Source: a virus
Lineage: Duplodnaviria; Caudoviricetes
IMG/VR virus record: IMGVR_UViG_3300028392_002123
Direction: 5' to 3' (one strand)
DNA length: 64,000 bases
This document shows positions 3 through 32,857 of this stretch, piece after piece; position 1 is the first letter of the stretch; each line of letters opens with the position of its first letter. A program made the position numbers and the translations under genes. The notes beneath the pieces were generated by a model. That model was not told the origin of the DNA and ran no database searches. It was given only the letters and a program-made list of their open reading frames with translations.

Positions 3-275
3 CCAGAGTCTCCCACACTACGACTAATTATAACTGATGATTTTTTAGAACTGCAAAGTCTAATAGAAAATCCAGAAAATTTTAAAATTGAAGAAACATT
101 AAACCTGTATCTACATAAACAAGGCGAACCCGACTTCTTACTGCGAAAGTATGTTATAAATAGAAACGACTTGGTCAATCAAAACAGACTAATATTGGAC
201 GGCAACGATCTAATAGGAAAAGTTTCTGCGGTGTGCGATTCAAGACATATTAATGTAGAAACTATATATGAGTAA
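3..275 (+). CDS. 5'-truncated hypothetical protein
   Basis: Frame 3 is open from the window edge (PESPTLRLIITDDF...VETIYE) to TAA at 273-275, overlapping the next ATG at 268. Confidence 0.6.
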   Translation, partial: PESPTLRLIITDDFLELQSLIENPENFKIEETLNLYLHKQGEPDFLLRKYVINRNDLVNQNRLILDGNDLIGKVSAVCDSRHINVETIYE

Positions 276-1251
276 ACCAATCCCTATAAACGAATATGAC
301 ATTGTGTTCATGAGCTATGATGAACCAAATGCAGATTATAATTATTCCAATTTACTGGAAAAAGCTCCATGGGCCAAACGAGTACACGGAGTCTTGGGAT
401 TCGATGCTTGTCACAAAGCCGCTGCCAGGGCCGCTGAAACAGATAGATTTATCACTGTTGATGCTGACAATATTGTACGCGAAGAATTTTTTAATCTAGA
501 ACTAGACATGAGTAAAGTGGGCCAGCATGATGTTATCAGCTGGGCAGGAAAAAACTATATCAACGGATTGACCTATGGCAACGGTGGCATTAAGTTTTGG
601 CCCAAGCATGTAGTTGAATCCATGAAAACACACGAAGTAGCGGAAAATGCAAAAAGCCAGACAGATTTTTGTTGGGACATTTATTATCGTCAAATGAATA
701 ACATATACAGTGATGTATATGCAAATGGCAGCGCATATCAAGCTTATCGCGGAGGTTTTCGCGAAGGTGTCAAGCTGGGCTTAGAAAGCGGCACAGTTGT
801 TGATGCTAGACAATTAAAAAATAAAGTCTATGATAGAAATTATAAACGCTTATTGGTATGGGCCACAGTGGGCGCCGACGTGGAAAACGGTCTGTGGAGC
901 ATGTACGGCACACGATTAGGAATATATCTAACAAACATTAAACGCAGTGAATGGGATTTTACTGCTGTGCGAGATTTTACATGGCATACTAATTATTGGA
1001 ACGAAGAAATTAAATCAAAATTCACAGATGACAACGGAGATGGAATGTGCAATGCCACAGGATGGAAATACAGCACCACCAAGCTGTGGACAGAAATAGT
1101 AAAACTGGGAGACCAGTTAAGAACAGAACTGGGCTTAGAAATCGGAGAGTTGGATCATAATGGCAGTAAGTTTTTTAAAGAAAGCTTTATTAATCCACCT
1201 AGACTAGGCGCATTGGTTCGCGAAGACCAAGTAGATAATACAATAGAATAA
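268..1251 (+). CDS. Glycosyltransferase-like protein (GT-A-like DxD), family A paralogue 1
   Basis: VFMSYDEPNAD, RVHGVLGFD, FITVDAD (DxD), NGLTYGNGGIK, FREGVK; same motifs at 14811, 15523, 16530. Confidence 0.55.
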   Translation: MSKPIPINEYDIVFMSYDEPNADYNYSNLLEKAPWAKRVHGVLGFDACHKAAARAAETDRFITVDADNIVREEFFNLELDMSKVGQHDVISWAGKNYINGLTYGNGGIKFWPKHVVESMKTHEVAENAKSQTDFCWDIYYRQMNNIYSDVYANGSAYQAYRGGFREGVKLGLESGTVVDARQLKNKVYDRNYKRLLVWATVGADVENGLWSMYGTRLGIYLTNIKRSEWDFTAVRDFTWHTNYWNEEIKSKFTDDNGDGMCNATGWKYSTTKLWTEIVKLGDQLRTELGLEIGELDHNGSKFFKESFINPPRLGALVREDQVDNTIE

Positions 1252-1254
1252 TAT

Positions 1255-2649
1255 ATGAGCTTTCATGAATTCAGGGACGAGCTCAATGCCGTCAGCAGTA
1301 GTTTTTGTATTGCCAAATGGAAACAGGTAACTCTGCATCTCCAAACAGGTCATACACACAGTTGTCACCATCCTACCACACACAAAGTCCCGTTAACAGA
1401 AGTCTTGGTCAATCCCAGTGCTTTGCATAATACAAAATATAAAAAACTACAGCGTAAAAAAATGCTCACAGGATCTCGTCCCAGCGAATGTGACTATTGT
1501 TGGCGTGTGGAAGACAGTGGTGCCGATGTACTCAGTGACCGTGTCTATAAAAGTTCAGATGTATGGGCAAAGAAATATTTAAAAGAATGTACAGATAATC
1601 CCTGGGACTTTGATTTTGCACCCAGCTATTTAGAAGTTAGTTTTAGTAGCGTGTGTAATTTTAAATGTAGCTATTGCAGTCCCGAAGTCAGCAGTAAATG
1701 GATGGAAGAAAGCGAACGTTTTGGTCCTTATCCCACTAGCAGAAAATTCGGCGACATAAGCTGGTTAAAGGATGCGGGAAAATTTCCTATTCCCCACAGC
1801 GAATATAATCCCTATGTGGATGCCTTTTGGGCGTGGTGGCCCGACATCTATCACAGTCTAGAACATTTTAGAGTCACAGGTGGTGAACCTTTGTTGGCCA
1901 AGGACACATTTAAAGTCTTGGATTATATCATTGAAAATCCGAATCCAGAATTAGATCTCAGTATAAACAGCAATATGTGTGTACCTGACGCAGTACTGGA
2001 CAAGTTCATTTCTAAAATTAAAATTATCTGCGGTGAAAAGAAAATCAAAAAATTTAAAATCTTTACCAGCTGTGACGGCCATGGCCGGGCCGCTGAATAT
2101 ATCAGAGACGGCTTGGACTATGAACAATGGAAACGTAATATTCAAAAAGTATTGGATCAAGTACCTGAATGTACATTCACCATAATGAGCACATACAATG
2201 CATTGAGTATCAGTACATACTTAGACTTTTTAAAAGACGTAGTTGAAATCAAACGCAAGTACGGCGGTGCAGATGGTAGGAACAGTCCTTTCATTCTAGA
2301 TACACCTTACCTAAGACATCCCGAGCATCAAGCAATTTTTATACTGCCTAATCGTTGGGCTGACAAGATCAAAGAACAAGTGGACTATGTATTTGAAAAT
2401 ATAGAAAATCCCACGGATCCCAATAGAACTAATCAGGGTTTTTATCCCTGGGAAGCTGATAAATTCAAACGCATACATGAATTAATGCTGTCCAAAGAAG
2501 AAATGGAATTTAAAGTAACACAGGCACAAAAAGACTTTGTGGCATTTGTCGACGAACACGATCGTAGACGCGGCACTAACTTTTCCGAAACGTTTCCTGA
2601 GTATATGGATCTATATTACTTTTGGAAAAATAATCCTATAACAACATGA
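1255..2649 (+). CDS. Radical SAM protein with N-terminal twitch/SPASM-like Cys domain
   Basis: CNFKCSYC (CxxxCxxC), TGGEP; N-terminal FCIAKW...SCHH...ECDYCW. Confidence 0.85.
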   Translation: MSFHEFRDELNAVSSSFCIAKWKQVTLHLQTGHTHSCHHPTTHKVPLTEVLVNPSALHNTKYKKLQRKKMLTGSRPSECDYCWRVEDSGADVLSDRVYKSSDVWAKKYLKECTDNPWDFDFAPSYLEVSFSSVCNFKCSYCSPEVSSKWMEESERFGPYPTSRKFGDISWLKDAGKFPIPHSEYNPYVDAFWAWWPDIYHSLEHFRVTGGEPLLAKDTFKVLDYIIENPNPELDLSINSNMCVPDAVLDKFISKIKIICGEKKIKKFKIFTSCDGHGRAAEYIRDGLDYEQWKRNIQKVLDQVPECTFTIMSTYNALSISTYLDFLKDVVEIKRKYGGADGRNSPFILDTPYLRHPEHQAIFILPNRWADKIKEQVDYVFENIENPTDPNRTNQGFYPWEADKFKRIHELMLSKEEMEFKVTQAQKDFVAFVDEHDRRRGTNFSETFPEYMDLYYFWKNNPITT

Positions 2650-6956: not shown

Positions 6957-7573
6957 AGATTTGGGTCTACGGTTGTAGTTTTAGTGAGCCTTTTCAAATT
7001 CAACAAGGCGGAGCCGAGTGGGACGAGCATGGGTATAGAATAATAACCTCCGACTATTGGGGAACACATCTTGCCAAAAAACTTAATAGAACCTGTGTTA
7101 CTAGAAGTCTAAGCGGTGTGGGATGGAACTATATAACTGAAAAAATAGACGAAGATATCATGGATTGGAGTAAAGATGATATTATCATTATTAGTCCTAG
7201 TTTTTTCAGTAGAGTAACATTTGAAGAATTAATAAAACGTGACAGTCAAAGTGAACTAGCAGGACAATTCTTAGAATGGGATCAAGTTGCCAAATATAAT
7301 GAACTACGCTGGGCTAGAAAGGTAGACACGCTACAATATTTCAATTATAATGTCTATACTTGGGTAGTAGATACTCCTAGATTTTCAGCATTGCCAAAGA
7401 ATTTAATTAAAGCAGAACAACACATTTCTTGGAAATCCTGGATGGATGAGAATAAACAATATTGGCAGGATCCTACTACTAATAAATATCCCCTGGGAGA
7501 TTGGCACTTTAACGAACTAGGCCATAGTGCAGTAGCAGAGATAATGTATAATTTTATATGTCAACAGCAATAA
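6953..7573 (+). CDS. SGNH/GDSL hydrolase-like protein
   Basis: VYGCSF, SLSGVG, DWHFNELGH. Confidence 0.55.
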   Translation: MKIWVYGCSFSEPFQIQQGGAEWDEHGYRIITSDYWGTHLAKKLNRTCVTRSLSGVGWNYITEKIDEDIMDWSKDDIIIISPSFFSRVTFEELIKRDSQSELAGQFLEWDQVAKYNELRWARKVDTLQYFNYNVYTWVVDTPRFSALPKNLIKAEQHISWKSWMDENKQYWQDPTTNKYPLGDWHFNELGHSAVAEIMYNFICQQQ

Positions 7574-8331
7574 TTGTTTCAGGAACACTACGTCATTTAG
7601 TCAATGCTAGCAGTAGCTGGACAATTCCCGGCGACTATTTTTTAGTCATTGATCAAAACATTTATACCACACCTGATTTAACAGTGGTAGGGGATAGCCT
7701 AGATATTATCTCTGAAAATATAAGGCACAGTCACGTTAAATTTAAAAGTATATTCATTTGTGTAGACAGTAACCTGCCCAAAGAAGTAAAACATCATTCC
7801 AGCATTAACATGATTAATAAATGGAAGTTGGCCTACTATAACATACTTCCGTATAACACTATTAATAACTATGAAAGAATTATTCTTTTACGTCCAGATT
7901 TATATCTATACAAACGGGCACCAACATTTAAGATGTTGGAAATAGTTCCTGAAAATAATACTATCTATTCAACTATCGGAATAACAACAACTGAAGTACC
8001 CGACATAGGCACAAGGGAAATAATGAATGATGTATTGCTGATGTGCAACCTGCAGACATTTTCTATATTGGCCAATGAATTTGGTCCGTATTACCTAGAA
8101 CGCTATGCCGAAACTCAAAATGGCGGCTATGAAATACACAGTATGCTGGCAAGATTTGTCAAAGAAAAAGGCATTGCCGTGATGCCACATATCGATAATT
8201 ATTTTGAATTCTCAGTATTAAGAAACAACAGCAGTGAATTATTTGTTAATGGAGTATTATTACCCACTGTTGATTATAATACGATCAGAGAAAGATCACG
8301 GGATTGGTGGAAGCAAGTACATGGAAAATAA
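7558..8331 (+). CDS. Putative glycosyltransferase-like protein, divergent family B
   Basis: IIVSGTLR, YERIILLRPD, NDVLL: degenerate versions of the family B motifs. Confidence 0.35.
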   Translation: MSTAIIVSGTLRHLVNASSSWTIPGDYFLVIDQNIYTTPDLTVVGDSLDIISENIRHSHVKFKSIFICVDSNLPKEVKHHSSINMINKWKLAYYNILPYNTINNYERIILLRPDLYLYKRAPTFKMLEIVPENNTIYSTIGITTTEVPDIGTREIMNDVLLMCNLQTFSILANEFGPYYLERYAETQNGGYEIHSMLARFVKEKGIAVMPHIDNYFEFSVLRNNSSELFVNGVLLPTVDYNTIRERSRDWWKQVHGK

Positions 8332-9139
8332 AAAATTAGTTGTCTGCGGCGATAGTTTTGCTGTAGGAATAGGCTGTCATGATCTAGTCAATGAGCCCGT
8401 GGGTAGTTTAGTTGCCCGGGAGCTGAATAAACCTTTGATAAATTTAGCCAAAGGATCTAGTACAAATTTCAGTATATTCTTGCAGATGCAGTATGTTGCG
8501 GATAAACTTGCCAATGATGTGGACTTAGTTCTAGTGGGTAATACCAGCTATGACAGAGTAGAATGGTTTCCCTTGGACACAGATTTTACCGGAGTCAGTG
8601 ATATTACCAATGAGATGGTCAACTATCATGAATATCCGCCTTACATGGAAAACAGCTATCATGTACACGGAAAAAATATATCACTGCCTAATCCCATGGC
8701 CGCTGACCCTGACTATTCTGGAGAAATGTTCACTGAGAATTACATGGGAGTCATCGACTACTGGGAAACTTATGGTAAAAAGAATCAAATAACCGAATAT
8801 TATAAAAGATTTGAAAACGAACCAAAAGCTCGAATGAACACGCTTTACAATTATGCTACTACTATACATGAAGCACGAATCAATCGCATATATAGTATAG
8901 GAGTATTAGCCATGGGTCATCAACGATTAAAACGACAGGGTATTAATCACTTAATTTTTAGTCAAGAACTTGAAGCCTATGCAAAATATATAGATAGAGA
9001 AAATCTAGTGGATATTAGTTGGGGGCAACTAAGTTTGGATTACCCAGATGATTTGCCAACTTGGCATACCAATGCAGAAGGGCATTGTGTGGCACGTGAT
9101 AAAGTTATGGCAAAGTTAAAAGAAAATGGATGGATATAA
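8321..9139 (+). CDS. SGNH/GDSL hydrolase-like protein
   Basis: VVCGDSF, NLAKGSSTN, WHTNAEGH; start placed at ATG 8321 (MENKK) just before the upstream stop. Confidence 0.6.
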   Translation: MENKKLVVCGDSFAVGIGCHDLVNEPVGSLVARELNKPLINLAKGSSTNFSIFLQMQYVADKLANDVDLVLVGNTSYDRVEWFPLDTDFTGVSDITNEMVNYHEYPPYMENSYHVHGKNISLPNPMAADPDYSGEMFTENYMGVIDYWETYGKKNQITEYYKRFENEPKARMNTLYNYATTIHEARINRIYSIGVLAMGHQRLKRQGINHLIFSQELEAYAKYIDRENLVDISWGQLSLDYPDDLPTWHTNAEGHCVARDKVMAKLKENGWI

Positions 9140-9579
9140 TGGAAATTAAAAAAGTCAATAAACACTGGGGCTATGAGTTATGGATTGCCGATGGGGTTAG
9201 AACACCCTACGCATCAAAACGCATATTGTTCAAAGCAGGGAATAGAACCAGTTTACAAGTTCATGAACACAAGTTTGAAACTAATTATGTACTCAGCGGC
9301 ACTGGCGTTCTGCATCGCAGTAAGGATCCCTTAAACATAGAACAATTTTTGGCAAACGGCATGACATCAACTCAGGTAGAAGAATATGAAGCAACATTCG
9401 AAGTCATTGAATTAAAAGAAGGTGTTGTATTTGATGTGCATCCTGGCTATGTACACAGAGTTATAGCTACCACGGATTTAGAATTCATGGAAACAAGTAC
9501 AACAGAACTTGATGATGTTATTAGACTGCAAGATGATCAAGGTCGCACACACGGAAGAATCAGCTACGAACATGGGTAA
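9139..9579 (+). CDS. Cupin-domain protein (mannose-6-phosphate isomerase type II-like)
   Basis: KHWGYELW, TSLQVHEHKFETNYVLSG, HRV, ETST...DDVIRLQD; TAATG coupling to the upstream gene. Confidence 0.7.
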   Translation: MEIKKVNKHWGYELWIADGVRTPYASKRILFKAGNRTSLQVHEHKFETNYVLSGTGVLHRSKDPLNIEQFLANGMTSTQVEEYEATFEVIELKEGVVFDVHPGYVHRVIATTDLEFMETSTTELDDVIRLQDDQGRTHGRISYEHG

Positions 9580-11101: not shown

Positions 11102-11427
11102 ATACTGCTCAACTAGCAATACGTTATTTTAAAGCATTTGCCGAAAAAGATCTAGGTTCCTTGGATGTACTCCTAGCAGACGACATAGTATTAACAGATT
11201 GGGATGGCCAGGCCATTGGTAAAGAAGCAGTTTTAAAATTCTGCGAGACTTTATTCAAAAGCGTGGGACGGCTAAATGTTGACATTGAAAAAATTGCCAT
11301 CGGGCAGGATACTGTCATGGCTGAATTGGGAATAGCCATAAACGGTGCCAATAAAATACATGTTGTCGATGTACTGGACTATGATCAAGACAAAAAAATT
11401 AAAAGAATCAGAGCTTATAAAAGATGA
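11098..11427 (+). CDS. SnoaL/NTF2-like protein
   Basis: 109 aa; YFKAF..KDL..L..LLADDIVLTDW, VVDVLDYD...KIKRIRAY pattern. Confidence 0.65.
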   Translation: MNTAQLAIRYFKAFAEKDLGSLDVLLADDIVLTDWDGQAIGKEAVLKFCETLFKSVGRLNVDIEKIAIGQDTVMAELGIAINGANKIHVVDVLDYDQDKKIKRIRAYKR

Positions 11428-13130: not shown

Positions 13131-13322
13131 ATGTCTATATTAGATATGTTTTCTAAAAAAGAAGAACCTAAAAAAGAACAAGATTGGCTTGATAAGCAGG
13201 CCGACGAATTAACTGAAGCTTTCAATGATCCTCAGCTAACTGAAGAGGAACGTAAACATCAAGAGCTTCTTGCTAAACGGTTAGAAGAACTACGTAAACG
13301 AGATCCTTTTATCTACAAATGA
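13131..13322 (+). CDS. Small charged hypothetical protein
   Basis: 63 aa, AGGAG Shine-Dalgarno upstream, ATGA overlap with the carbamoyltransferase. Confidence 0.7.
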   Translation: MSILDMFSKKEEPKKEQDWLDKQADELTEAFNDPQLTEEERKHQELLAKRLEELRKRDPFIYK

Positions 13323-17219: not shown

Positions 17220-17220
17220 T

Positions 17221-23171: not shown

Positions 23172-24016
23172 TAGATTTTTCAGCATCAAATAAATTATAT
23201 GAAACTAGAGACCCCAGTATAGAAGTTAATTTGTACAACTTTGATGGCTTGGATATTCCATTTAATCCAGAATGGACCAATATAGGAATTAACCTAAGTG
23301 GTGGTGCAGATAGTAGTTGTCTGCTAATGTTGTTGTCTAAGATAATTACTAGAACCGGCAGTAAGTGTCGCGTTCATGTTATTCAACATCTACGTTGCTG
23401 GAGTATTCGTCCCTGGCAGGGCCCAGTGGCCATGGCAGTATTCAATAAGTTCCAGGAATTATTTCCTAACATTGAATATATTCGTTATAAAAATTTTATA
23501 CCGGTTGGCTTAGAATGGGGTGTAATTGGACCAATTACCAAAGATGATAAAGGCAGAGATCGTAGCGGTGATCAAATTATTGTTGACGAGTTTAACAATT
23601 ATATGTTGTACACAGAAAAATTAGATGCTATGTATAACGGCACTAGTAGAAATCCAGATGTAGACTTTGCCAGTAAGATGATGAACAGAGAATTATCCCC
23701 CGAAGAAGGAAATCTCAAAGATATCATGTTTAAGAGATTGGGCGGATTGATTATTCTTCCATTTAAGTTTGTACGCAAGGATTGGATCGTTGCAGAATAC
23801 TATAGACAGGGCATGGAAGAACTTTATAACACCACACGTAGCTGTGAAGGCAACGTTGGCCATGCATCCAGTGCAGATATAATTCCTACCTTAGATGACT
23901 ATAAACCAGGACAGTATGTACCTGTTTGCAATGAATGTTTCTGGTGTAACGAACGTAACTGGGCAGATAGCAAGTTAGAGGAAACATTAAAACTTTTAGA
24001 GGATCAATCTAATTGA
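23168..24016 (+). CDS. QueC-like PP-loop (adenine nucleotide alpha-hydrolase) protein
   Basis: LSGGADS PP-loop; C-terminal TRSCE...CNECFWCNER Zn-binding pattern as in QueC. Confidence 0.55.
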   Translation: MIDFSASNKLYETRDPSIEVNLYNFDGLDIPFNPEWTNIGINLSGGADSSCLLMLLSKIITRTGSKCRVHVIQHLRCWSIRPWQGPVAMAVFNKFQELFPNIEYIRYKNFIPVGLEWGVIGPITKDDKGRDRSGDQIIVDEFNNYMLYTEKLDAMYNGTSRNPDVDFASKMMNRELSPEEGNLKDIMFKRLGGLIILPFKFVRKDWIVAEYYRQGMEELYNTTRSCEGNVGHASSADIIPTLDDYKPGQYVPVCNECFWCNERNWADSKLEETLKLLEDQSN

Positions 24017-25323
24017 CTGCCACGTTTTGTCCTATTCCATGGAATTTCCAAGCAATAAGAGCAAATGGTGACATAAGGATTTGCTGTCAAGCCAACACGA
24101 CTAAAAATCAAGGTGTTATACGCAAAGAAGATGGTACAGCATTTAATGCTGGCCGCGACGAGCTGGAACAAGCACGTAATGCCACACTGATGTCGGAAGT
24201 TAGAAAAAACATGCTAGCTGGTCGTTGGAGTGACGAATGTGGACGTTGCCAACGAGAAGAAGAAAATGGTCTAGTCAGCCGTCGTAGCTATGAAAATGAG
24301 CAGTGGAAATTTGACATAGAACGTGCTAGACAATTAACAAAAGATGACGGGAGTATAGACACCAAAGACTTTCCTGTGGTGTACTATGACCTGCGCTTTG
24401 GAAATTTCTGTAATTTAAAATGTCGTATGTGTGGACCCACAGACAGTAACGCTTGGTATGACGACTGGATTGAATTAACCGGTACAAATAAATTTAAAGA
24501 TACCAGCGGCATGATTACTATTACAAAAGTCGACAAAGGTTACCATGTGCCGGAATTTGAATGGTACAACTATGAACCATTCTGGACACAATTAGAACAA
24601 AATATGCAGAACATCGAACATGTATATTTTGCCGGCGGCGAGCCTATGTTAATTGAACGTCATTACGATTTTCTAGAACGTTGTGTAGAAGCAGGTGCTA
24701 GTAAAAACATGATCATTGAATACAACACTAACATGAGTACCTTGCCCAGTCGTGTTGTGAATCTATGGACACAGTTCAAACAAGTACGCATTGGTGCCAG
24801 CGTGGATGGCATGGGCGCAGTCTTAGAATATCAACGTAATCCCGCTAAATGGGAAAAGACTTTGACTAATCTTCAAAGAGTCGACGAACTGCCTCCAAAC
24901 ATTATCAGTTGGCTAGCATTTACAGTCACAGCTTATAATGTATTACACATGGTTGATTTTATGAAATGGAAGTTAACTGAAAGCGGATTTAAGAGAATAA
25001 ACAGTTCCTATAGAAGACCTATAGTAACATATCATGTTGCTCATCATCCTAAACATTTAAACATTAGAGTGTTGCCCAAAGAATTCAAACAAACAGTGGT
25101 CGACAAGTATACAGAATTTTTAGCATGGGTGGAGGAACATAAATTCGAACAGTATGTTGTCAAACATGCCAAAGAAATTGTAAACGGTGTTATAAGTTAT
25201 ATGAACAGTGAAGATTATAATCCTGAGCACTGGGATGAATTCGTTAAGTATACAACAGATTTAGATAAAATACGCAGAGAGAACTTAATAACAGTTGAGC
25301 CAGAATTTAAGAAATATATATGA
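24013..25323 (+). CDS. Radical SAM protein with N-terminal twitch-like domain
   Basis: TTG start; FCPIPW...RICC...ECGRC; CNLKCRMC; AGGEP. Confidence 0.87.
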   Translation: MTATFCPIPWNFQAIRANGDIRICCQANTTKNQGVIRKEDGTAFNAGRDELEQARNATLMSEVRKNMLAGRWSDECGRCQREEENGLVSRRSYENEQWKFDIERARQLTKDDGSIDTKDFPVVYYDLRFGNFCNLKCRMCGPTDSNAWYDDWIELTGTNKFKDTSGMITITKVDKGYHVPEFEWYNYEPFWTQLEQNMQNIEHVYFAGGEPMLIERHYDFLERCVEAGASKNMIIEYNTNMSTLPSRVVNLWTQFKQVRIGASVDGMGAVLEYQRNPAKWEKTLTNLQRVDELPPNIISWLAFTVTAYNVLHMVDFMKWKLTESGFKRINSSYRRPIVTYHVAHHPKHLNIRVLPKEFKQTVVDKYTEFLAWVEEHKFEQYVVKHAKEIVNGVISYMNSEDYNPEHWDEFVKYTTDLDKIRRENLITVEPEFKKYI

Positions 25324-26045
25324 ACAATTTATTACACGAATACGACACATTAGATCTATTAGACGGTAGTGTATTTCAAGTTACATGGGACTTGGGTCGT
25401 CGTTGTAATTACGACTGCTCCTATTGTCCTGTACATAGGCATGATAATCATAGTCCACACGCTACCTTAGAAGAATTAAAAAAGAACGCAGACTTTGTTT
25501 TTAAGTACATTGGCCTGTACATGAAGTATAGGAATTACAAAGAAGCCAGTATTAGTTTTACCGGAGGTGAACCCACTGTTAATCCTAATTTTATTCCCTT
25601 TATTAAATATCTCAATGAGACTTATCAAGCAAATTATAAAGATGATTATCTGTGTACATTTGCCTTGACCAGCAATGGTGCAATGAGCGAAAAGATGGCC
25701 AAGGCTGTATTAGAAAATTTTAGTCATATCACTATCAGTTATCACACAGAAGCAGATCAAACACTAAAACAACAAGCATTAGATCGTATTGTGCAAATAT
25801 TCGAAGGTGGCCCTGCTAACTTATGTACAATTAGTATCAATGTTATGTTTCATGCTCAATACTTCGACGAGTGTATAGAAGTCTGTAACAAATTAGATGC
25901 CGCAGGAGTTACTTATGTGCCGCGTGTTATTGGAGAAGATCCTGATAGTCGTCCTAGTTTTGCCCATAAATATTCTGATGAACAATTAGCTTGGATGAAA
26001 GACTATTGGGATCGTAAAAATAAGAAAGTAAACGAAAATGTCTGA
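25320..26045 (+). CDS. Radical SAM protein, core domain only (apparent N-terminal half of a split gene)
   Basis: VTWDLGRRCNYDCSYC, FTGGEP; aligns by eye with the N-terminal part of 30513-31679. Confidence 0.8.
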   Translation: MNNLLHEYDTLDLLDGSVFQVTWDLGRRCNYDCSYCPVHRHDNHSPHATLEELKKNADFVFKYIGLYMKYRNYKEASISFTGGEPTVNPNFIPFIKYLNETYQANYKDDYLCTFALTSNGAMSEKMAKAVLENFSHITISYHTEADQTLKQQALDRIVQIFEGGPANLCTISINVMFHAQYFDECIEVCNKLDAAGVTYVPRVIGEDPDSRPSFAHKYSDEQLAWMKDYWDRKNKKVNENV

Positions 26046-26475
26046 TGAAAAGAAACTAGGTATGAAAATTGGCCGTCCATGTTGTGGCGGCCGCACAATG
26101 TGTTTTAGCAAGGGCGAGGAAAGTATTCGCGGAACCTTTAGTGGCAAGCGCGAATTCAAAGGTTGGCATTGTAGTGTTAACTGGTTTTTCTTTCATATAG
26201 AACAGCAAACTGACAAAGTGTTTCATCATCAAACATGCCAAGCACAATTTGGAGAGACTCGCGGACCTATAGGTACACTATCGGAAAGCGACAAGATTCT
26301 TGAAGAATTGGAACGTAATCTTAGAGAAGAAACAATGCCAACAATTATCTGTCCAAAAAAGACCTGCGGTTGTGGTATGTGTGCTCCTAAGAGCATGGAC
26401 AAAGAAGAATACAAACGTGTATTGTTCCAGCACATAGACAGTAGTCCCTTTAACAATTCATTGTCCTTAAAATGA
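26038..26475 (+). CDS. Cys-rich auxiliary Fe-S (SPASM-like) domain protein (apparent C-terminal half of a split gene)
   Basis: GRPCCGG, WHCSVN...QTC, ICPKKTCGCGMCAPK; resembles the C-terminus of 30513-31679. Confidence 0.55.
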   Translation: MSDEKKLGMKIGRPCCGGRTMCFSKGEESIRGTFSGKREFKGWHCSVNWFFFHIEQQTDKVFHHQTCQAQFGETRGPIGTLSESDKILEELERNLREETMPTIICPKKTCGCGMCAPKSMDKEEYKRVLFQHIDSSPFNNSLSLK

Positions 26476-28403
26476 AAATAGGCATCTTTGGTGGCGAGTA
26501 TGTACATAAGCATACCGCAGAAAACTTTACACCTAGTTGGGTACAAATACTATCTAAAAAATATGATGTAACACTAATAGGTAGCATAGACATAGACATG
26601 TTGTCTCTGTATACAACATTTGTCGATCGTGCCAGAGATTTTGATCAAGTTATTTTTGTTGCACCTGCTGATAACAAGTTGTCAAACTCAAATTCAGATG
26701 CTGTAAGAGATGCTATAGTGGCATTAGAAAAAGCACATTCAGTGACTATTTCATCAAGCGATTTCATAAAACATTTATTTGAAAAAGAAGCAAATAAGTT
26801 TACAAGAAAATCTTTGTTAGATTTAATCATAGCTGATATAAAAGATTTTCGCCCTGATACTATAATAATTAATTCTCATTTTTATAATGATAATTTAGGC
26901 TTAAATGCCATTAAAAAATTAGAAGAAAAATCATGGGGTTTAGATCCTTGGCCCGCAGATACAAAATTAGGCCACGATTCTAGGCAATGCTACTTAACTA
27001 AAGAAAACAACGAGATACTGGCCGCAGAAGTAGAGTCTTGGTTAACTGGCACAAAAGTTTTTATAGATATTAACAAGTATGTAGTGCCTACTGTGGAATC
27101 TATAGAATATTTTTTAACTCACGAAGCAAGAAAACTAAGAAGACAGCAGTATAAGAATTTTGAATCCAGTGCAACATACTGCTATTATCCTTTCAAAGAA
27201 ATAGCAATCAAAGAGTACAGGGGTACAGAACTCTTGGCCTTTTGGCCGTGTTGCATGATGGGAAATCAAATCAATGATCGTAAAACATTCAATGTATTAG
27301 ATGTAACGAATCCTGGACAATATACGCCACAGGAAATGTACGATCATCCTAGAATGCAACTATTAAGATCGAATAAACTATTAGGCATACGAGATAAAGC
27401 CTGTGAAACATGTTGGGATCAGGAAAATAGAGGATTGGATTCTTTTAGAGTAATGTCAAAAGAACCTGCAGACATTGAAGACGGCCTAACAGAAATCAAT
27501 GATTTGTACATGATAGATATGACTGCCAGTAATATATGCAATCTCAGATGCAGAATGTGTACTCCCAGTGCCAGCAATTTATTAATGATGGACTACAAAT
27601 ATTTTGAAGAAAACAATCTTATCGAAGATGTTAACAAATCTCTTAGAGGAAGATTCTATCACAGCGTACCATATAAAGCAACTGAAAGCAAACAATGGTC
27701 TTGGCTAATGGAAAATACAGATCGTATACGTGTGCTCAAGGCCAGCGGCGGCGAGCCACTCTATGACGGCAAGGTAATTCAATTATTACAACGTTATATA
27801 GAAACCGGTTCGGCACAGCAGACTAGATTATCTTTTCATACTAATGCAACTCAATTCAATGACGCTGTCATTGATATATTGAGTAAGTTTAAAAGCAACG
27901 AACATACTTTTAGTATAGATGGCGCAGATAAAGTATATGAGTACATTAGATATCCTGCTACCTTTGATGAACTAGAAACTAGTGTAAACAACTATATAAC
28001 AAAACTAGATAACATTGCAAATACCATGCATTTTAATTGTGTGGTTAGTTCTTTGAATGTTCTTAATCTAAACAGTTTATTTGACTGGGCGGAAAAGATT
28101 TCTGATAATCCGTTTGTCAATCTCAGCGAATTGTATCCTCCTGACAGAGGTACAGCAGTAAAACATTTACCAAAGCATTTATTAGAGTTGGCTCGACAAC
28201 GCCTTGAACCTTATATAAACACACCAAAGAATATGCCTAACCTAAGTGTTATCAATATGATTACATTATTGAATACTGCTATTGATAACAATCAAGAAAA
28301 CAAAGAACTTATGTTAAAAGAAATAACTTTGTTTGATGAATCTAGAAATCAAAATTTTAAAGATTTTCTAGATCCTGCACTAGTGGAGTGGCTATGCAGG
28401 TAA
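26472..28403 (+). CDS. Degenerate SGNH-like domain fused to twitch-type radical SAM domain
   Basis: N-terminal ~220 aa resemble the neighbour 28394-29137; then CYYPF...WPCC...ACETCW; CNLRCRMC; SGGEP. Confidence 0.8.
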   Translation: MKIGIFGGEYVHKHTAENFTPSWVQILSKKYDVTLIGSIDIDMLSLYTTFVDRARDFDQVIFVAPADNKLSNSNSDAVRDAIVALEKAHSVTISSSDFIKHLFEKEANKFTRKSLLDLIIADIKDFRPDTIIINSHFYNDNLGLNAIKKLEEKSWGLDPWPADTKLGHDSRQCYLTKENNEILAAEVESWLTGTKVFIDINKYVVPTVESIEYFLTHEARKLRRQQYKNFESSATYCYYPFKEIAIKEYRGTELLAFWPCCMMGNQINDRKTFNVLDVTNPGQYTPQEMYDHPRMQLLRSNKLLGIRDKACETCWDQENRGLDSFRVMSKEPADIEDGLTEINDLYMIDMTASNICNLRCRMCTPSASNLLMMDYKYFEENNLIEDVNKSLRGRFYHSVPYKATESKQWSWLMENTDRIRVLKASGGEPLYDGKVIQLLQRYIETGSAQQTRLSFHTNATQFNDAVIDILSKFKSNEHTFSIDGADKVYEYIRYPATFDELETSVNNYITKLDNIANTMHFNCVVSSLNVLNLNSLFDWAEKISDNPFVNLSELYPPDRGTAVKHLPKHLLELARQRLEPYINTPKNMPNLSVINMITLLNTAIDNNQENKELMLKEITLFDESRNQNFKDFLDPALVEWLCR

Positions 28404-29137
28404 TCGGTATTTTTGGAGACAGTTGGGCTAGCCATACCATGCCCAATACACCGGGAATAGGTTGGCAACAAATTGTCAAAGAGCACTACGATGGTCCTGA
28501 CTATTTCGTGGACAACTATGCTCGGCCTGGAAGTAGTTTATATTTTTCTTATGAAAATTTTTTAGTGCATCACCATAAATTTGACAAAATTATTTTTGTT
28601 GTAACTTCATCCGGAAGATTGCTTCTCCCTTACGGATGTGAAGTATGTAATGATGGTCTTACAGATAATGTTACACGACATGTTAATACATATTTTACTG
28701 CTAATAGTTTATTAAAAAAGTTGCCCGATGATCCAAAATATGATCGAGATAGAAAAATTCTAGAAGCCGCTGTAGCTTATTTTACATACATATATGATAT
28801 AAACGAACACAGACATTACAGTAAATTAATGATAGAAGAAATAAGAAGAATACGACCAGATGCTCTTATTGTTCCAATCACAGTTGATGAAAGAATACCA
28901 GGATTTGAACATCCATGCTTGCATGAAATTATCAATGAAGTCGAATTAACCTACTGGGGTATTACCGGCGATGACATAGAATCCATGGTAGAACTTAGAA
29001 GCTGTCATATGAGCAAAGAGAACAACGAAATATTTGCAAAAAAAATAATTACGTGGATTGATACCGGACATTGGACTCCGTTGAGTGTCAATGAGTTTGT
29101 AAATCCTTTGTTACCATGGAAAGAATATTTTAAATGA
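28394..29137 (+). CDS. SGNH/GDSL hydrolase-like protein
   Basis: GIFGDSW, NYARPGSS, RSCHMSKENN. Confidence 0.55.
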   Translation: MQVIGIFGDSWASHTMPNTPGIGWQQIVKEHYDGPDYFVDNYARPGSSLYFSYENFLVHHHKFDKIIFVVTSSGRLLLPYGCEVCNDGLTDNVTRHVNTYFTANSLLKKLPDDPKYDRDRKILEAAVAYFTYIYDINEHRHYSKLMIEEIRRIRPDALIVPITVDERIPGFEHPCLHEIINEVELTYWGITGDDIESMVELRSCHMSKENNEIFAKKIITWIDTGHWTPLSVNEFVNPLLPWKEYFK

Positions 29138-30285
29138 AACACTATTGTCCTTTACCTTTTAATCATCTTGCTATTAGACCCAATGGTAATGTGTATCCTT
29201 GCTGTTTTTTCCGTTGGGAAGAAACCCCTGCAGATATGACATTAGACTATCCCGATTTGTTTAATTCGCATCCTTTTATGAAACAGATTAGAGAAGATCT
29301 GCGAGAGGACAAACCCATTGCTGGATGCAGTAAATGCTATGAAGCCGAAGAGCTAACGGGCAAGAGTATGCGATTAGATTACCTAGCTGACACTAAATTA
29401 GGATTGAGTACAACTCCACCAGAAAAAGAAGAATTAAAGTATGTAGACCTATCATTGAGCAATGTCTGTAATAATAAATGTAGGATGTGTAGTTATGAGC
29501 TGAGTACAAGTTGGTACAGCGACACTAAAAAATTAGGAGTTGAAATTCCACGCGGTTTGATTAAAAACGGTAATCCTTTAGAGGGTTATGATTTATCTAA
29601 ACTAACTTATATTAAGATGATTGGCGGTGAGCCTTTAATGGAACAAGAAAAGTTTATCGACATACTCAAACAATGTAATTTGCCTGAATTAACTATTTTA
29701 ATTACTACTAACACTACAGTAAGGCCAAATGCAGAGCTACAGGCTTTGTTAGATCAATGTAAGCGTATAAAGTGGAATTTTAGTGTAGACGCATATGGCA
29801 CACTAAATGATTTCCTACGTAAAGGCAGTAAATGGCAGGAAGTTGCTGATAACCTAGATTGGTATATCAATCGTTATGGCAAGGATACAAACGTGCATGC
29901 CGTGGTCAGCATCTATAATATTAATACTTTTTACGAACTTAATACATATATTAAAACAAGACATCCAAAGAGCTATATCTCATTTGTAACTGCCGATGGG
30001 CCGAGTTGGATGATGATTGCTAATTTGCCTGAACGTGTCAAAGAGACAATAAAAAATAAATTAGAAATAGAAAATGCCAAACTACCTATTCCTAACTTTA
30101 ATGTTATCATTGAAGATATGATGAAACCCGGGGATTTTTATTCTTTTGTTCACATGGACAAGCGATTAAATCTAATCAGAGAAGAACATTGGATCGAGCA
30201 TAATCCAGAACTATATGAACTGATCAAAGATGAATTTGATCCATTCTACGCATCAGTGGATCCTACGGAACCTATCTATAAATAA
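29134..30285 (+). CDS. Radical SAM protein with N-terminal twitch-like domain
   Basis: YCPLPF...YPCC...GCSKCY; CNNKCRMC; IGGEP. Confidence 0.87.
   Translation: MKHYCPLPFNHLAIRPNGNVYPCCFFRWEETPADMTLDYPDLFNSHPFMKQIREDLREDKPIAGCSKCYEAEELTGKSMRLDYLADTKLGLSTTPPEKEELKYVDLSLSNVCNNKCRMCSYELSTSWYSDTKKLGVEIPRGLIKNGNPLEGYDLSKLTYIKMIGGEPLMEQEKFIDILKQCNLPELTILITTNTTVRPNAELQALLDQCKRIKWNFSVDAYGTLNDFLRKGSKWQEVADNLDWYINRYGKDTNVHAVVSIYNINTFYELNTYIKTRHPKSYISFVTADGPSWMMIANLPERVKETIKNKLEIENAKLPIPNFNVIIEDMMKPGDFYSFVHMDKRLNLIREEHWIEHNPELYELIKDEFDPFYASVDPTEPIYK
30277..30284 (+). promoter_or_regulatory. T4-like late promoter motif TATAAATA
   Basis: Exact motif, 5 nt before ATG 30290. Confidence 0.5.
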
Positions 30286-30289
30286 GTTC

Positions 30290-30520
30290 ATGGACATTAA
30301 AGATTTACCATTAAGAACATTACAGTTAGAAGCAGCCAGAGTTATCAGCTCTATGGAAGCAACCAACGATAACATACATAAATTTAACAAGGCAAGCAGA
30401 CATAATAGTCAAGGTTGGTACATAGCCGCTGTCGAATGGTACGTAAAAGAATACGGCGGCATGCCCAGCGAAACAGGACCGGGAAAAGACATTAAGTTTG
30501 TCTATGAACAAGATGAGTGA
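30290..30520 (+). CDS. Small hypothetical protein
   Basis: 76 aa from ATG 30290 (MDIKDL), directly after a TATAAATA motif; overlaps the next gene start. Confidence 0.65.
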   Translation: MDIKDLPLRTLQLEAARVISSMEATNDNIHKFNKASRHNSQGWYIAAVEWYVKEYGGMPSETGPGKDIKFVYEQDE

Positions 30521-31679
30521 TTTAAAAACCAGTGAATACGACTTTACTAAGATTCCCTACAGTGACTTAGTAAGAGTTGGACAAAGAACAATGCTGTACC
30601 GAGACATGTTCAGTGTGTCTTGGCTATTAGGACGTTATTGTAATTACCGCTGTAGCTATTGCTGGCCCTATGCTCGCAGTGATACAAAAGATCACAGACC
30701 CACTCCTTTAATGTTACACACAGTGGATGAAATTAAACGACAAGCTCGCGAGCGCGGATTTAATAGTTTTCACTTTAGCCTAAGTGGCGGAGAGCCTACA
30801 TTCCATCCGGCTTACATTGATATTTTAAATCATTTAAACAATGATGTACATAATACAAACTATACCAGCGTACATATGACATCAAACATGAGCCGTCCAT
30901 TAAAGTGGTTTGAAACACAGTACGTACCAGCAGTTAAGAACTTTCATCGTGCTAGTATTACTGCCAGTTGTCATCGTGAGCATGTTGACACAGATAAAAA
31001 GGTCGAAGAGTTTGCTGACAAGTTGGTGCTATGTCAAGAATACGACACGCAGATAACTATTAACATGGTCATGGTACCGGAACAGTTCAATGAGATCTAT
31101 GACTTGGCATTATACTTTCATAACAGAGGCATCAACGTAACACTCAAACCGCAGAGCGATCCAACTGCTAGTCGTGTAGTAGATGGTTATACTCCTGAGA
31201 TGTTGGCTAAGTTACATAATGGTATGCCACAACGTGCATTCACAGAAGTTAAAGCCGCAAGAGCAGACTTGGTTAAACGTCCCAAGCCTACGTATATGAT
31301 TGACAGAGCAGATCCTGGATTCAAGCAACAAGCAGGTGTTGATGCACACTACCAAGTGGAGTTCATTGACAAAGAAGGCAAGCCGTGGTTCATGGATCAA
31401 GCTGAGCGTTTTAATGCATTTAACTTTAATAACTTTAATCAGTGGGAATGTAGTAGTGGCTATCGAAGTATCATTATTCGTGAACCAGATGGCACAGTAA
31501 AGCGTAGTTATAGCTGTAGCGAAGTTCCATTGGGACACATTGAAACAGGCTTTAAGTTATACGACAAGCCCATGCCCTGCGGTGGAACTAGCTGTGTAAG
31601 TAGTGCTGACAGTAAAATTCCTAAACGTGCGCCTGGAACAAAGTTACCGTTGTTCCCTGGGGATAAAACCTATGAATGA
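30513..31679 (+). CDS. Radical SAM protein with C-terminal Cys domain
   Basis: VSWLLGRYCNYRCSYC, LSGGEP; C-terminal WECSSG...YSC...PCGGTSC. Confidence 0.87.
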   Translation: MSDLKTSEYDFTKIPYSDLVRVGQRTMLYRDMFSVSWLLGRYCNYRCSYCWPYARSDTKDHRPTPLMLHTVDEIKRQARERGFNSFHFSLSGGEPTFHPAYIDILNHLNNDVHNTNYTSVHMTSNMSRPLKWFETQYVPAVKNFHRASITASCHREHVDTDKKVEEFADKLVLCQEYDTQITINMVMVPEQFNEIYDLALYFHNRGINVTLKPQSDPTASRVVDGYTPEMLAKLHNGMPQRAFTEVKAARADLVKRPKPTYMIDRADPGFKQQAGVDAHYQVEFIDKEGKPWFMDQAERFNAFNFNNFNQWECSSGYRSIIIREPDGTVKRSYSCSEVPLGHIETGFKLYDKPMPCGGTSCVSSADSKIPKRAPGTKLPLFPGDKTYE

Positions 31680-32304
31680 AATAGAATTATATAACTGTCT
31701 AACTAGATTTGGTCAACTATATGAATTGAGTATTAAAGACGACGTCTTTGATTTATTAAACAATATAAAAAAATTCGACTCTGATTGGAAAGTTTATAAT
31801 CCAAGAAAGAAAATTAATAGACAGGGTCTAAGCATTACCAGCATCGATGGTGGACTGTCTGGTATACCAGACTTGGACAGCGTATATGAATATAATAAAA
31901 CAAACAATTTACTGTTAACAGAAAGTTCTTTTAATAAAAAAACACCGGTGTATCAATACTGTGCTAAGTGGCTGGACTTCTTAGGAGATAACATTGGGCG
32001 AACACATCTTATAAGACTAGGGCCCGGTGGCTATTTTCCTATACACCGCGATAACAAAACATTGTCTATAAGTAATTTTCGTTTGTTTGTACCCATTGAA
32101 AATTGTAACTATCCTAAGATGACTTTTGTTTTAAATAGAGAGATGTTAAATTTTAACCATGGGTCTATGTATTTTATGGATACTTGTTTGGAGCACTATT
32201 TGTTCAATCACGATGCATATGATGATTCTACATTTATGGTAGTCAATGTAAACTTAACTGAAAGTGCAGTTACATCAGTTCTGCAACATTTGAAAGCGGG
32301 ATGA
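31672..32304 (+). CDS. Fe(II)/2OG oxygenase (aspartyl/asparaginyl beta-hydroxylase-like)
   Basis: RLGPGGYFPIHRD (HxD), distal DTCLEH. Confidence 0.65.
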   Translation: MNEIELYNCLTRFGQLYELSIKDDVFDLLNNIKKFDSDWKVYNPRKKINRQGLSITSIDGGLSGIPDLDSVYEYNKTNNLLLTESSFNKKTPVYQYCAKWLDFLGDNIGRTHLIRLGPGGYFPIHRDNKTLSISNFRLFVPIENCNYPKMTFVLNREMLNFNHGSMYFMDTCLEHYLFNHDAYDDSTFMVVNVNLTESAVTSVLQHLKAG

Positions 32305-32305
32305 T

Positions 32306-32857
32306 ATGAAAATTTTAATTGCAGGAAATCCTAGCTACGGCGTAGCACAATCGATTAAAGAAGAACTAAGTATGCACGAACTTGTATTTGCAAGTCGTAG
32401 TTCAGGTTTTGATTTAACAAAAGCAGAAGTTCAGCAACAATTTGCAGATTTATGTGCGGATGCAGACACAGTTATATTATGTAGTGCTTTATGGAAATTT
32501 AATCAAACTCTATTGTTAGAAGCAGTTTATAAAAAATTAAAAGCATTGAATAAACGAACATTGATTATAGCAATTGGTAGCACCACAGACAGAGTAATGA
32601 AAGCCACTGATTGGTTGTACAATGCCGAAAAGAAAGCATTGCGAGATTATTGTAATAGTTTAGGTATTGCAGGCGTTTGGTCAGCAGGGCCTAGAGTTAC
32701 TTTAATCAGTTTTGGCACATTGAGTAATATGCAGGCCAAACATCCTGACAGAAAAACAATGCCAATAAAAAAGGCCGCCGAGTATATTAAATGGATACTC
32801 GAACAGCCTTCGGATTTACACATTAACGAAATTAGTGTAGATCCCTTACAAGCCTAA
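32306..32857 (+). CDS. Short-chain dehydrogenase/reductase-like protein
   Basis: N-terminal Rossmann-like strand (ILIAGN..YG), IGS, YNAEK (YxxxK). Confidence 0.6.
   Translation: MKILIAGNPSYGVAQSIKEELSMHELVFASRSSGFDLTKAEVQQQFADLCADADTVILCSALWKFNQTLLLEAVYKKLKALNKRTLIIAIGSTTDRVMKATDWLYNAEKKALRDYCNSLGIAGVWSAGPRVTLISFGTLSNMQAKHPDRKTMPIKKAAEYIKWILEQPSDLHINEISVDPLQA

Follow-up and report, generated by a model that had tools for sequence, protein, structure and literature searches.

A radical SAM-rich gene island behind the fibre genes of an uncultured freshwater jumbo phage and its predicted role in glycan building and tailoring

The window analysed here is a 64,000-nucleotide stretch of the virus record IMGVR_UViG_3300028392_002123, corresponding to C1:77943-141942 within a 148-kb piece of the genome G000. 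Its source is an uncultured freshwater jumbo phage with a T4-type DNA polymerase (PolB; 55357-58014, - strand), whose nearest counterparts are those of Sinorhizobium phage Phosso and Agrobacterium phage Atu_ph07 (45-47% identity). Our subject is a gene island that encodes ten radical S-adenosylmethionine (SAM) enzymes together with glycosyltransferase-like, SGNH-like and other tailoring genes. From 268 to 32857 the + strand carries a continuous run of 35 open reading frames (ORFs) of at least 80 amino acids plus one of 63 amino acids, the latter (13131..13322, +, from gene calling) filling the only apparent gap. Nearly all junctions overlap or abut, and the ORF listing bears out the initial annotation, which described a single-strand block of about 36 genes coupled by overlaps. 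The sign of the GC skew switches at about 32.8 kb. The start that had been placed at 268 does not hold, as four further conserved head genes (u2813, u2466, u1567 and u729) lie upstream; the true start is about 2.8 kb ahead of the window, which makes the island about 36 kb long.

The genes preceding the island encode virion components and lie on the same strand. Upstream of the window is a baseplate wedge subunit gene (+; phrog_10646, E 6.5e-260), followed by genes for a giant virion structural protein of 2541 aa (+; phrog_10938), a 213-aa protein and a fibre-like 308-aa protein (both +). A second fibre-like protein of 989 aa (C1:72107-75076, equal to L001:14108-17077; +), about 3 kb upstream of position 268, contains both an S8 subtilase domain and an InlB B-repeat. 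Fibre-like paralogues of the u6758 type stand immediately upstream of the enzyme run. The homologues of the 989-aa protein in close relatives are only 323-365 aa long, so this host-recognition protein has apparently acquired domains. No peptidase was said to be present, which is true inside 268-32857, with the S8 subtilase lying outside it in the 989-aa protein. After the 989-aa gene, the head of the island reads u2813, u2466 (glycosyltransferase-like, with a DxD motif), u1567 and u729. The C-terminal end of u729 (334 aa; genome ORF C1:77213-78217, with its start outside the window) occupies 3..275 (+), and orthologues with 23-25% identity are found at the same position in the relatives G007, G008, L105 and L106. 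A PDB sequence-profile search with u2466 gave no match.

All ten radical SAM proteins pass the Pfam model PF04055 (29.7-50.9 bits against a cutoff of 29.5), and each has a single CxxxCxxC motif. Both their number and their division into three paralogous groups, as initially annotated, were confirmed (Pfam and the motif check for the former, blastp and NCBIfam for the latter). The first group consists of N-terminal-twitch enzymes, all of which are members of NCBIfam NF033640 (cutoff 170 bits): g1255 (1255..2649, +; 348 bits, CNFKCSYC), g20450 (20450..21847, +; 433 bits), g21840 (21840..23171, +; 197 bits), g24013 (24013..25323, +; 388 bits), g26472 (26472..28403, +; 235 bits) and g29134 (29134..30285, +; 237 bits, with a Pfam SPASM match at residues 5-69). 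The g26472 protein is a fusion in which the radical SAM enzyme makes up the C-terminal two-thirds (residues 234-633, the part that matches NF033640), and its SGNH-like N-terminal domain (residues ~1-214) is paralogous to g28388 (26%, E 7e-12 in blastp). The remaining four radical SAM proteins score only 29-49 bits and are non-members. In an alignment of 100 N-terminal-twitch sequences C9, C90 and C93 are invariant and C27 almost so, and all four precede the C146/C150/C153 cluster. The C-terminal D-x2-R-x2-[DN]F-x3-FPE motif first ascribed to this group is exact in g1255 and g20450 and looser in g24013, and it is not group-wide; the family-wide consensus is LDxxR...PE.

A tree of 100 N-terminal-twitch proteins places the five window paralogues in five deep, separately conserved subfamilies, g21840 among them in a well-supported clade of its own. 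The suggestion that there is one radical SAM enzyme per position or substrate fits this tree. Bacterial and phage copies are interleaved, requiring 4 label changes, at least 2 of which are forced by well-supported branches. The most conserved gene of the island is the core N-terminal-twitch enzyme g20450 (NTw*), with 70-90% identity among the 80 viral contigs listed, a relative encoded in 166 stretches and more than 5000 metagenomic homologues. Its AlphaFold2 model (pLDDT 89) matches known structures over the radical SAM core barrel only, the best being BlsE and anSME (Z 12.1 each) and viperin (11.6); BlsE, anSME, viperin and CteB fall within Z 11.4-12.1, and SkfB, SuiB, EpeE and DesII are further neighbours. 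Because BlsE, anSME, viperin and CteB match equally, the fold cannot separate sugar, nucleotide and peptide substrates.

The second group (rsB) has C-terminal Cys clusters and comprises a core enzyme at 18186..19358 (+) and another at 19355..20440 (+), both identified by PF04055, with weak likeness to AhbD, a tungsten-cofactor maturase and SPASM families in NCBIfam. The third (rsC) is marked by the signature V[ST]WxLGRxC. One of its two members is a 241-aa radical SAM core (25320..26045, +; PF04055 7e-12, VTWDLGRRC) followed by a Cys-rich partner of 145 aa (26038..26475, +), which corresponds to its split-off tail. This arrangement is kept in L012, L022, L030, L032, L035 and L036, and in L062 and the bacterial loci described below the two pieces are fused into a single protein of 400-423 aa; because the split is conserved in several phages and fused elsewhere, it apparently represents a natural two-piece enzyme rather than a frameshift. 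The other is the core enzyme rsC* (30498..31679, +; PF04055 3e-13), which is 66-91% identical in relatives and matches MoaA (8e-11) and prokaryotic viperin (3e-10), each far under its cutoff.

Expansion is not confined to the radical SAM enzymes, for which it had been noted initially, and extends to glycosyltransferase-like genes (four copies), a family that we call Y (three to four) and SGNH-like genes (six). The glycosyltransferase-like proteins form a phage-specific family, here GTX. GTX-1 (268..1251, +; AlphaFold2 pLDDT 90) has a GT-A fold: residues ~4-155 of the model align to GT-A enzymes with Z 8-10.7 and rmsd 2.9-3.6, the best PDB matches being B4GALNT1 (Z 10.7), STIV A197 (9.4), SunS (8.9) and PBCV-1 A64R (8.1), and the top Foldseek matches are GT-A glycosyltransferases throughout. 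Neither aspartate of its DxD motif (D65, D67) varies in an alignment of 60 sequences. GTX-2, GTX-3 and GTX-4 (14811-15548, 15523-16539 and 16530-17219, all +) belong to the island core and are paralogous to GTX-1 (28-42% identity); a structure search of the Atlas with g15523 returned viral clusters labelled 'glycosyltransferase 2-like' (TM 0.83-0.85). The initial glycosyltransferase call holds at the level of fold.

Family Y is represented by three genes (2646-3407, 3416-4291 and 4272-5180, all +) that are paralogous by blastp and share the motif [CF]SGQxR[TH]W; their Atlas matches are viral-only clusters, and the cassette order is kept in L105-L109. A distant family-Y-like gene at 7558..8331 (+), with S8, G9 and R12 invariant in the family Y alignment and no Pfam match, is conserved in L107-L109. 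Three SGNH-like esterase/acyltransferase domains lie at 5125-6114, 6111-6956 and 6953-7573 (all +), the first two matching DUF6071 (E 5e-8 and 1e-14) and the third being a GCS variant; in all three, a GDS/GCS block I and a C-terminal WHxxxxH were seen by eye. Two further SGNH-like genes are located at 8234..9139 (+; VCGDSFAVG and TWHTNAEGH, true start probably near 8321), with orthologues at 59-61% identity in L107-L109, and at 28388..29137 (+; IFGDSWASH); both are members of profile A8. The block reads GDS in g5125, g8234 and g28388 and GCS in g6111 and g6953. An alignment of 27 sequences shows no change at the Gly and very little at the Ser and the C-terminal His. The initial SGNH call has support at profile level, though the matches are weak.

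A group of genes at 9-13 kb could supply an activated sugar. A cupin like the C-terminal domain of mannose-6-phosphate isomerase (9130..9579, +; Pfam MannoseP_isomer 4e-5, Cupin_2 2e-5; NCBIfam TIGR01479 GMP_PMI 4e-5, far under cutoff) is followed by a bifunctional protein (9509..11101, +) that joins a sugar-1-phosphate nucleotidyltransferase to an APH-fold kinase (Pfam NTP_transf_3 and APH; NCBIfam Arch_glmU 4e-14, AglF 8e-14 and HddC 6e-6, all under equivalog cutoffs). Next come a SnoaL-like protein (11098-11427, +; SnoaL_2 3e-12), a shikimate-dehydrogenase-like NAD(P) dehydrogenase (11424-12146, +; Shikimate_dh_N 3e-13; NCBIfam shikimate dehydrogenase 6e-26, below cutoff) and a class II aldolase/GatZ-KbaZ-like protein (12133-13128, +; GatZ_KbaZ-like 3e-13).

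The carbamoyl, methyl and oxygenase genes proposed in the initial annotation are all supported. The NodU/CmcH-type O-carbamoyltransferase (13319..14791, +) matches Carbam_trans_C (1e-53) and Carbam_trans_N (2e-37) with 182 and 130 bits against cutoffs of 27 and 24, and NodU over its C-terminal part (2e-42); identity is 78-79% in close relatives. The core methyltransferase-like protein (17170..18186, +) combines a unique N-terminal domain with a class I SAM-dependent methyltransferase fold (residues ~131-338; Atlas structural matches to class I enzymes, TM 0.68-0.70 measured on matched models). A 2-oxoglutarate (2OG)/Fe(II) oxygenase-like protein of the beta-hydroxylase type (31603..32304, +) has invariant H148, D150 and H198, and its profile A10 finds the beta-hydroxylase 7v4o (2e-4) and also proline hydroxylases. 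The protein at 23168..24016 (+) is PP-loop ATP pyrophosphatase-like and resembles QueC by eye, with the motif SGGADS (S44-G-G-A-D-S49) and a C-terminal CxxCxxC (C254, C257, C260), all invariant, and a PP-loop match to TilS (8e-4). A role as the QueC of a phage deazaguanine pathway was considered and dropped, as there is no QueC Pfam match and homologues occur inside bacterial radical SAM islands. Between the last two radical SAM genes is small75 (30290..30520, +), a Cys-free accessory protein of 75 aa with a conserved start ATG at 30290 (the listed ORF begins at 30230); its alignment A4 has 71% mean column identity. The last island gene, Ross183 (32306..32857, +), encodes a short Rossmann protein like the short-chain dehydrogenases/reductases (NCBIfam SDR_TniO_fam 5e-7, weak).

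A hydropathy scan detected no transmembrane segment in any G000 island protein, and accordingly no GtrA flippase, GtrB, GT-C, Wzx or Wzy membrane component. Within the window, a terminator scan was uninformative. One copy of the T4 late-promoter sequence TATAAATA lies at 30277-30284 (+), 5 nt ahead of the conserved small75 start, which is too near for a normal promoter with a leader.

Downstream of the island the genes run on the opposite strand and include ThyX, a DUF2201/MoxR pair, a QueE-like gene and PolB. ThyX (32846-33730, -) is convergent with the last island gene and overlaps it by 12 nt. The pair, a DUF2201 metallopeptidase/VWA protein and a MoxR-type ATPase (35051-37767, -), is kept in relatives. 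The QueE-like protein (43783-44643, -; phrog_2076, E 1.7e-54) is an eleventh radical SAM protein, outside the island. Yet another, of 429 aa and with 25% identity to g20450, is encoded on the opposite strand about 25 kb upstream of the window amid small genes (C1:51739-53028, -).

This architecture is shared by the relatives G004-G008 and by more than 80 viral contigs, and this co-occurrence supports the view that the island is more than a chance assembly. Its shared order begins with the giant protein, u7441, at least one u6758-type fibre gene, u2813, u2466, u1567, u729 and GTX; a variable interior follows, and then GTX, the methyltransferase, small75, rsB, NTw*, rsC*, Ross183 and the divergent ThyX block. 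Core GTX genes were found in 72 of 80 loci and the methyltransferase-like gene in 68 of 80; in 33-34 of 49 loci small75 has the methyltransferase on one side and rsB on the other, the g18186 type following it in 34 of 49, and Ross183 closes the island in G007 and G008. In five large relatives the PolB identities are 80, 78, 59, 58 and 56% against 89, 83, 70, 70 and 72% for g20450; the core radical SAM enzyme is better conserved than the polymerase, since its identity is higher in all five. These genomes have 8-19 radical SAM matches each, and the median is 8 per locus for loci of up to 21 kb.

Island length varies from ~20 kb to more than 54 kb across the clade. The interior content differs among relatives with PolB identities of 56-80%, and interiors are mostly non-homologous even where PolB is 80% identical. 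Some blocks travel together: a cassette of the 1255-type N-terminal-twitch gene, three family Y genes, three SGNH genes, g7558, another SGNH gene and the cupin keeps one gene order in several relatives. Across the clade, swappable cassettes are combined with a fixed core of GTX, the methyltransferase, small75 and three conserved radical SAM enzymes. The initial annotation had held that composition varying at random between related phages would speak against a functional island; the interior is indeed freely swapped, but the fixed core persists. In the island of G006 (73199-74488 of the extended map, ~11.8 kb into L101) there is a protein of 429 aa that has some nine hydrophobic segments as well as GIPGD/GLIPG motifs and looks by eye like a TctA-type transporter; it was tested as a GT-C candidate and proved unrelated to the bacterial GT-C described below.

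Among 50,697 phage records, only the cultured Ralstonia jumbo phage RsoM2USA (MG752970.1) has clear homologues. Its genes 354-347 (L110), at the same genomic position as the G000 island, hold a minimal version: after the giant protein and a fibre-like gene come u2813, u2466, two others, GTX (45% identity, the orthologue of GTX-1), an N-terminal-twitch enzyme of the 1255 type (41%), GTX (40%) and the methyltransferase (28%). The g1255 type pairs with GTX in the minimal island, and a second orthologue has 35% identity. A separate module in genes 203-199 (L111) encodes SGNH, N-terminal-twitch, SGNH, SGNH and carbamoyltransferase (47%) proteins. All of these island genes are annotated as hypothetical. 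The products of ORF361, ORF359 and ORF356, which lie just upstream of the minimal island, were detected in RsoM2USA virions by mass spectrometry (PMC8504454).

Homologues also occur in Bdellovibrionota. We rejected the explanation that matches in Bdellovibrionia metagenome-assembled genomes are mis-binned phage, because no T4-like PolB accompanies them and one island abuts secE-nusG-rplKAJL-rpoB. This island, at 178-199 kb of contig JAUHVL010000001.1 (L112/L084), lies directly upstream of that operon and encodes 13 or more radical SAM enzymes, including a B12-binding one. Shared with the phage island are the 24013-type N-terminal-twitch enzyme (50-54% identity), the fused rsC (43-46%), rsB and homologues of the PP-loop, 2OG and Ross183 proteins. 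The bacterial island lacks GTX, the methyltransferase and small75, and its last genes encode a UDP-sugar dehydrogenase, a radical SAM enzyme, a GT2 and a PMT_2-type GT-C (the latter a weak match). Bdellovibrionota genomes have 17-28 NF033640 matches each; no member above cutoff was found in 14 reference genomes. The identity of 50-54% suggests exchange between phages and Bdellovibrionota, and possibly a host link.

Taken together, the island appears to be the enzyme part of a hypervariable block behind the baseplate, giant-protein and fibre genes that builds and tailors an unusual glycan, with virion proteins as the favoured acceptor; we give this reading a probability of roughly 0.58. Leaving the acceptor aside, a glycan is the likely product given the GT-A paralogues, the sugar-activation fusion and the SGNH and carbamoyl enzymes; an independent argument comes from the UDP-sugar dehydrogenase, GT2 and GT-C of the bacterial island. 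With the methyltransferase and oxygenase genes added, the elaborately tailored glycan proposed in the initial annotation is the best-supported reading. Virion proteins are favoured because the phage island has no membrane protein, flippase or GT-C, whereas the bacterial one has a GT-C. The acceptor would be cytoplasmic, and most simply a virion protein, since the phages have soluble GTX, methyltransferase and small75 proteins and the island stays beside the fibre genes; the baseplate wedge, virion structural and fibre-like genes directly upstream on the same strand are supporting context, as is the detection of homologous upstream proteins in RsoM2USA virions. Among virion, DNA and host-surface acceptors, DNA is the least supported.

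The pathway may be pictured in four steps. The kinase/nucleotidyltransferase fusion, the cupin and the aldolase-, dehydrogenase- and SnoaL-like enzymes would provide an activated unusual sugar. Soluble GT-A-type proteins, u2466 and the four GTX, could then build the glycan on a cytoplasmic acceptor, as their folds suggest. Conventional tailoring, to judge from the enzyme families, would include SGNH-like acylation or deacylation, NodU-type carbamoylation, methylation and 2OG-dependent hydroxylation, and the PP-loop enzyme probably amidates a carboxyl group. Finally, the ten radical SAM enzymes of three families presumably act on sugar carbons, abstracting hydrogen at unreactive positions and thereby allowing reactions such as epimerisation, oxidation, deoxygenation, decarboxylation or C-C bond formation, perhaps with one position or substrate for each old subfamily. 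In a bolder version, which we advance only tentatively and think somewhat less likely to be right than wrong, the N-terminal-twitch, rsB and rsC enzymes are a large uncharacterised radiation spread over aquatic jumbo phages and Bdellovibrionota. Each subfamily would perform a different sugar transformation, yielding a hypermodified glycan on the tail fibres or the giant virion protein, and this coat would serve as a swappable host-range or anti-defence layer beside the fibre proteins.

Several points weigh against a virion glycan. For every member the glycan, the acceptor and the enzyme activities are predictions. GTX has no Pfam, NCBIfam, PHROG or PDB sequence match, and the GT-A fold is common to nucleotidyltransferases, which reach Z 8-9 against g268. 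Family Y gave weak DUF7796 matches below cutoff (6 of 21 members) and only noise in the PDB profile search. The merged SGNH profile A8 has top PDB matches that are nearly all SGNH/GDSL but weak (E 0.004-0.06); Pfam assigns DUF6071 to 9 of the 27 members, with Lipase_GDSL matches no better than E 0.02-0.09. The methyltransferase-like protein has no Pfam or PDB sequence match, and the PP-loop protein no Pfam or PDB match. Peptide modifiers (SkfB, CteB and anSME) are among the fold neighbours of the N-terminal-twitch enzymes, level with BlsE, viperin and DesII. No tract rich in Ser/Thr or in Cys that might serve as an acceptor emerged when the composition of the giant protein was scanned. Late expression, which would suit virion decoration, gains nothing from TATAAATA, which is not enriched in the window (3 sites against 7.5 by chance).

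The modified sugar might instead enter the lipid-carrier pathway of the host, alter the lipopolysaccharide (LPS) O-chain or capsule and so block superinfection. This has been proposed for the glycosyltransferases of the pelagimyophage host recognition cluster (PMC7029224), and the GT2 and PMT_2/ArnT-type GT-C of the bacterial island point to a surface acceptor in cells. The absence of membrane proteins is compatible with it, because soluble enzymes that work on lipid-linked acceptors are common among O-antigen glycosyltransferases. We nevertheless regard envelope remodelling as rather unlikely here: by the hydropathy scan the G000 island has no GtrA, GtrB or other Gtr-type protein, flippase, polymerase, ligase or GT-C, the single polytopic protein observed among the islands of relatives shows no relationship to the bacterial GT-C, and the phage core of GTX, methyltransferase and small75 is missing from the bacterial islands. 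Moreover, the island prolongs a structural operon, and exclusion functions are usually early genes. Alternatively, side chains of the fibre or giant virion proteins might themselves be the substrates of the radical SAM enzymes, which would introduce cross-links, epimers or hydroxylations like the maturases of ribosomally synthesised and post-translationally modified peptides (RiPPs), with glycosylation secondary. SPASM and twitch radical SAM enzymes are mostly peptide modifiers, and SkfB, CteB, anSME, SuiB and EpeE are among the fold neighbours; the island adjoins fibre genes, one with an S8 protease domain, the 2OG enzyme resembles residue beta-hydroxylases and a small conserved partner protein is present. 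That partner, small75, is however unlike a precursor peptide because it is conserved over its full length and has no cysteines. As initially annotated, the ORF list holds no precursor-peptide array, and no Pfam or NCBIfam match to an RRE or PqqD domain was found in the island proteins, though a divergent RRE could escape such models. The sugar-activation genes of the phage island and the UDP-sugar dehydrogenase, GT2 and GT-C of the bacterial one also fit poorly with side-chain modification, which we consider improbable.

Still less probable is hypermodification of DNA, in which a tailored sugar or side chain would be placed on phage bases as protection against restriction. ThyX abuts the island, a QueE-like radical SAM protein is encoded at 43783-44643, the PP-loop protein is QueC-like and the rsC group is weakly like the nucleotide-acting MoaA and viperin. 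But Pfam and NCBIfam detected no DpdA/TGT transglycosylase, base kinase, DNA glycosyltransferase or DNA-binding transferase among the island proteins, synteny is with fibre genes and not with the nucleotide-metabolism genes on the other strand, and the bacterial homologue is linked to GT2 and GT-C. The T4 DNA glucosyltransferases have a GT-B fold, unlike the GT-A glycosyltransferases of the island. The enzyme mix also recalls antibiotic clusters, with a TobZ/NodU-type carbamoyltransferase, BtrN/BlsE-like radical SAM enzymes, dehydrogenases and an aldolase, so that a diffusible aminoglycoside- or nucleoside-like compound directed at the host or at competitors could be imagined; one relative's island (G006) encodes the transporter-like protein, and phage antibiotic genes have been speculated on in a cyanophage paper. 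Against such a product, Pfam and the hydropathy scan revealed no scaffold synthase, resistance gene or exporter in the G000 island, the island keeps its place after the fibre genes throughout the clade, and four to five glycosyltransferase paralogues are present with no aglycone pathway. We think it very improbable, and glycosylation of virion proteins remains our preferred reading.

If that reading is correct, the island represents a very abundant enzyme system. It would add radical chemistry to viral glycobiology, give NF033640 a function and explain why certain T4-like and jumbo phages invest so much iron in 8-19 radical SAM enzymes, which has been puzzling since 2010. The four-gene minimal core of RsoM2USA (GTX, N-terminal-twitch, GTX, methyltransferase) and the Bdellovibrionota island offer experimental handles.

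As a genomic phenomenon the island is not new; it is descriptively known and widespread, and the novelty ascribed to it initially was overstated, since comparable islands have been published in descriptive form (PMC7029224, PMC2853527, PMC5332604). Pelagimyophages and cyanomyophages have a host recognition cluster (HRC), a hypervariable region between VrlC and gp14 with a mean length of 44.6 kb, which contains fibres, glycosyltransferases (mainly family GT8), LPS-type genes and swappable radical SAM cassettes; its authors attributed it, without a functional test, to change of the host O-chain (Zaragoza-Solas et al. 2020, PMC7029224). Like the HRC, the island lies in the structural region of an aquatic T4-like myophage, is hypervariable, extends over tens of kb, follows a giant structural gene and tail fibres and combines glycosyltransferases and LPS-type sugar genes with radical SAM cassettes. 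It differs in belonging to another phage lineage, with a PolB nearest to those of Phosso and Atu_ph07, and in having ThyX with a replication block, not gp14, as its downstream neighbour. Moreover, the giant upstream protein matches virion proteins of Rak2, 121Q, PA5oct and SCTP-2, with no cyanophage or pelagiphage match among 88 records (tblastn). The N-terminal-twitch radiation, the GTX family and the fixed core are not described in the HRC paper (PMC7029224).

Other phages rich in radical SAM genes are the T4-like Campylobacter phages CP220 and CPt10, with 11-12 such genes, five of them in an interchangeable module (Timms et al. 2010, PMC2853527), and a T4-like marine environmental viral genome with 12 (Nishimura et al. 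2017, PMC5332604). These papers suggested a part in metabolic support or Fe-S metabolism rather than in glycan tailoring, and they do not tie the genes to the fibre region (PMC2853527, PMC5332604). CP220-group enzymes share 27% identity with the island over a third of rsC* and have no match to the N-terminal-twitch core. The family NF033640 (N_Twi_rSAM), to which six island proteins belong (197-433 bits), is computationally defined and is a library entry without function, and we found no published function for it; the island proteins show its hallmark of four N-terminal cluster cysteines ahead of CxxxCxxC. A precursor peptide with leader and core, as in RiPP maturase systems, is not seen beside the island genes in the ORF list, and the membrane components of Gtr-type serotype conversion and Wzx-Wzy systems were not found in the G000 island. 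The carbamoyltransferase is a clear member of the NodU/CmcH type, with both Carbam domains above cutoff, and GTX shares the fold and DxD motif of GT-A (GT2-like) glycosyltransferases without a sequence match to a curated family.

The closest precedents for the chemistry may be systems that decorate virions. Freeman et al. reportedly described in 2023 mycobacteriophage glycosyltransferase cassettes responsible for virion glycosylation. In these cassettes and in the capsid glycosylation of chlorovirus PBCV-1 (A64R), soluble viral glycosyltransferases encoded beside structural genes act in the cytoplasm on virion proteins. To our knowledge neither system has radical SAM enzymes, and both have far fewer tailoring genes; GTX is similar to PBCV-1 A64R at fold level (Z 8.1). 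For the bacterial counterpart the comparison is with the Arn-type pathway, in which a UDP-sugar dehydrogenase is followed by a GT2 polyprenyl-phosphate sugar synthase and then by a GT-C that transfers the sugar to a surface acceptor. The phage island lacks the Arn-type GT2/GT-C pair, whereas the same trio of enzyme types closes the Bdellovibrionota island, which also has at least 13 radical SAM enzymes without a counterpart in the Arn pathway.

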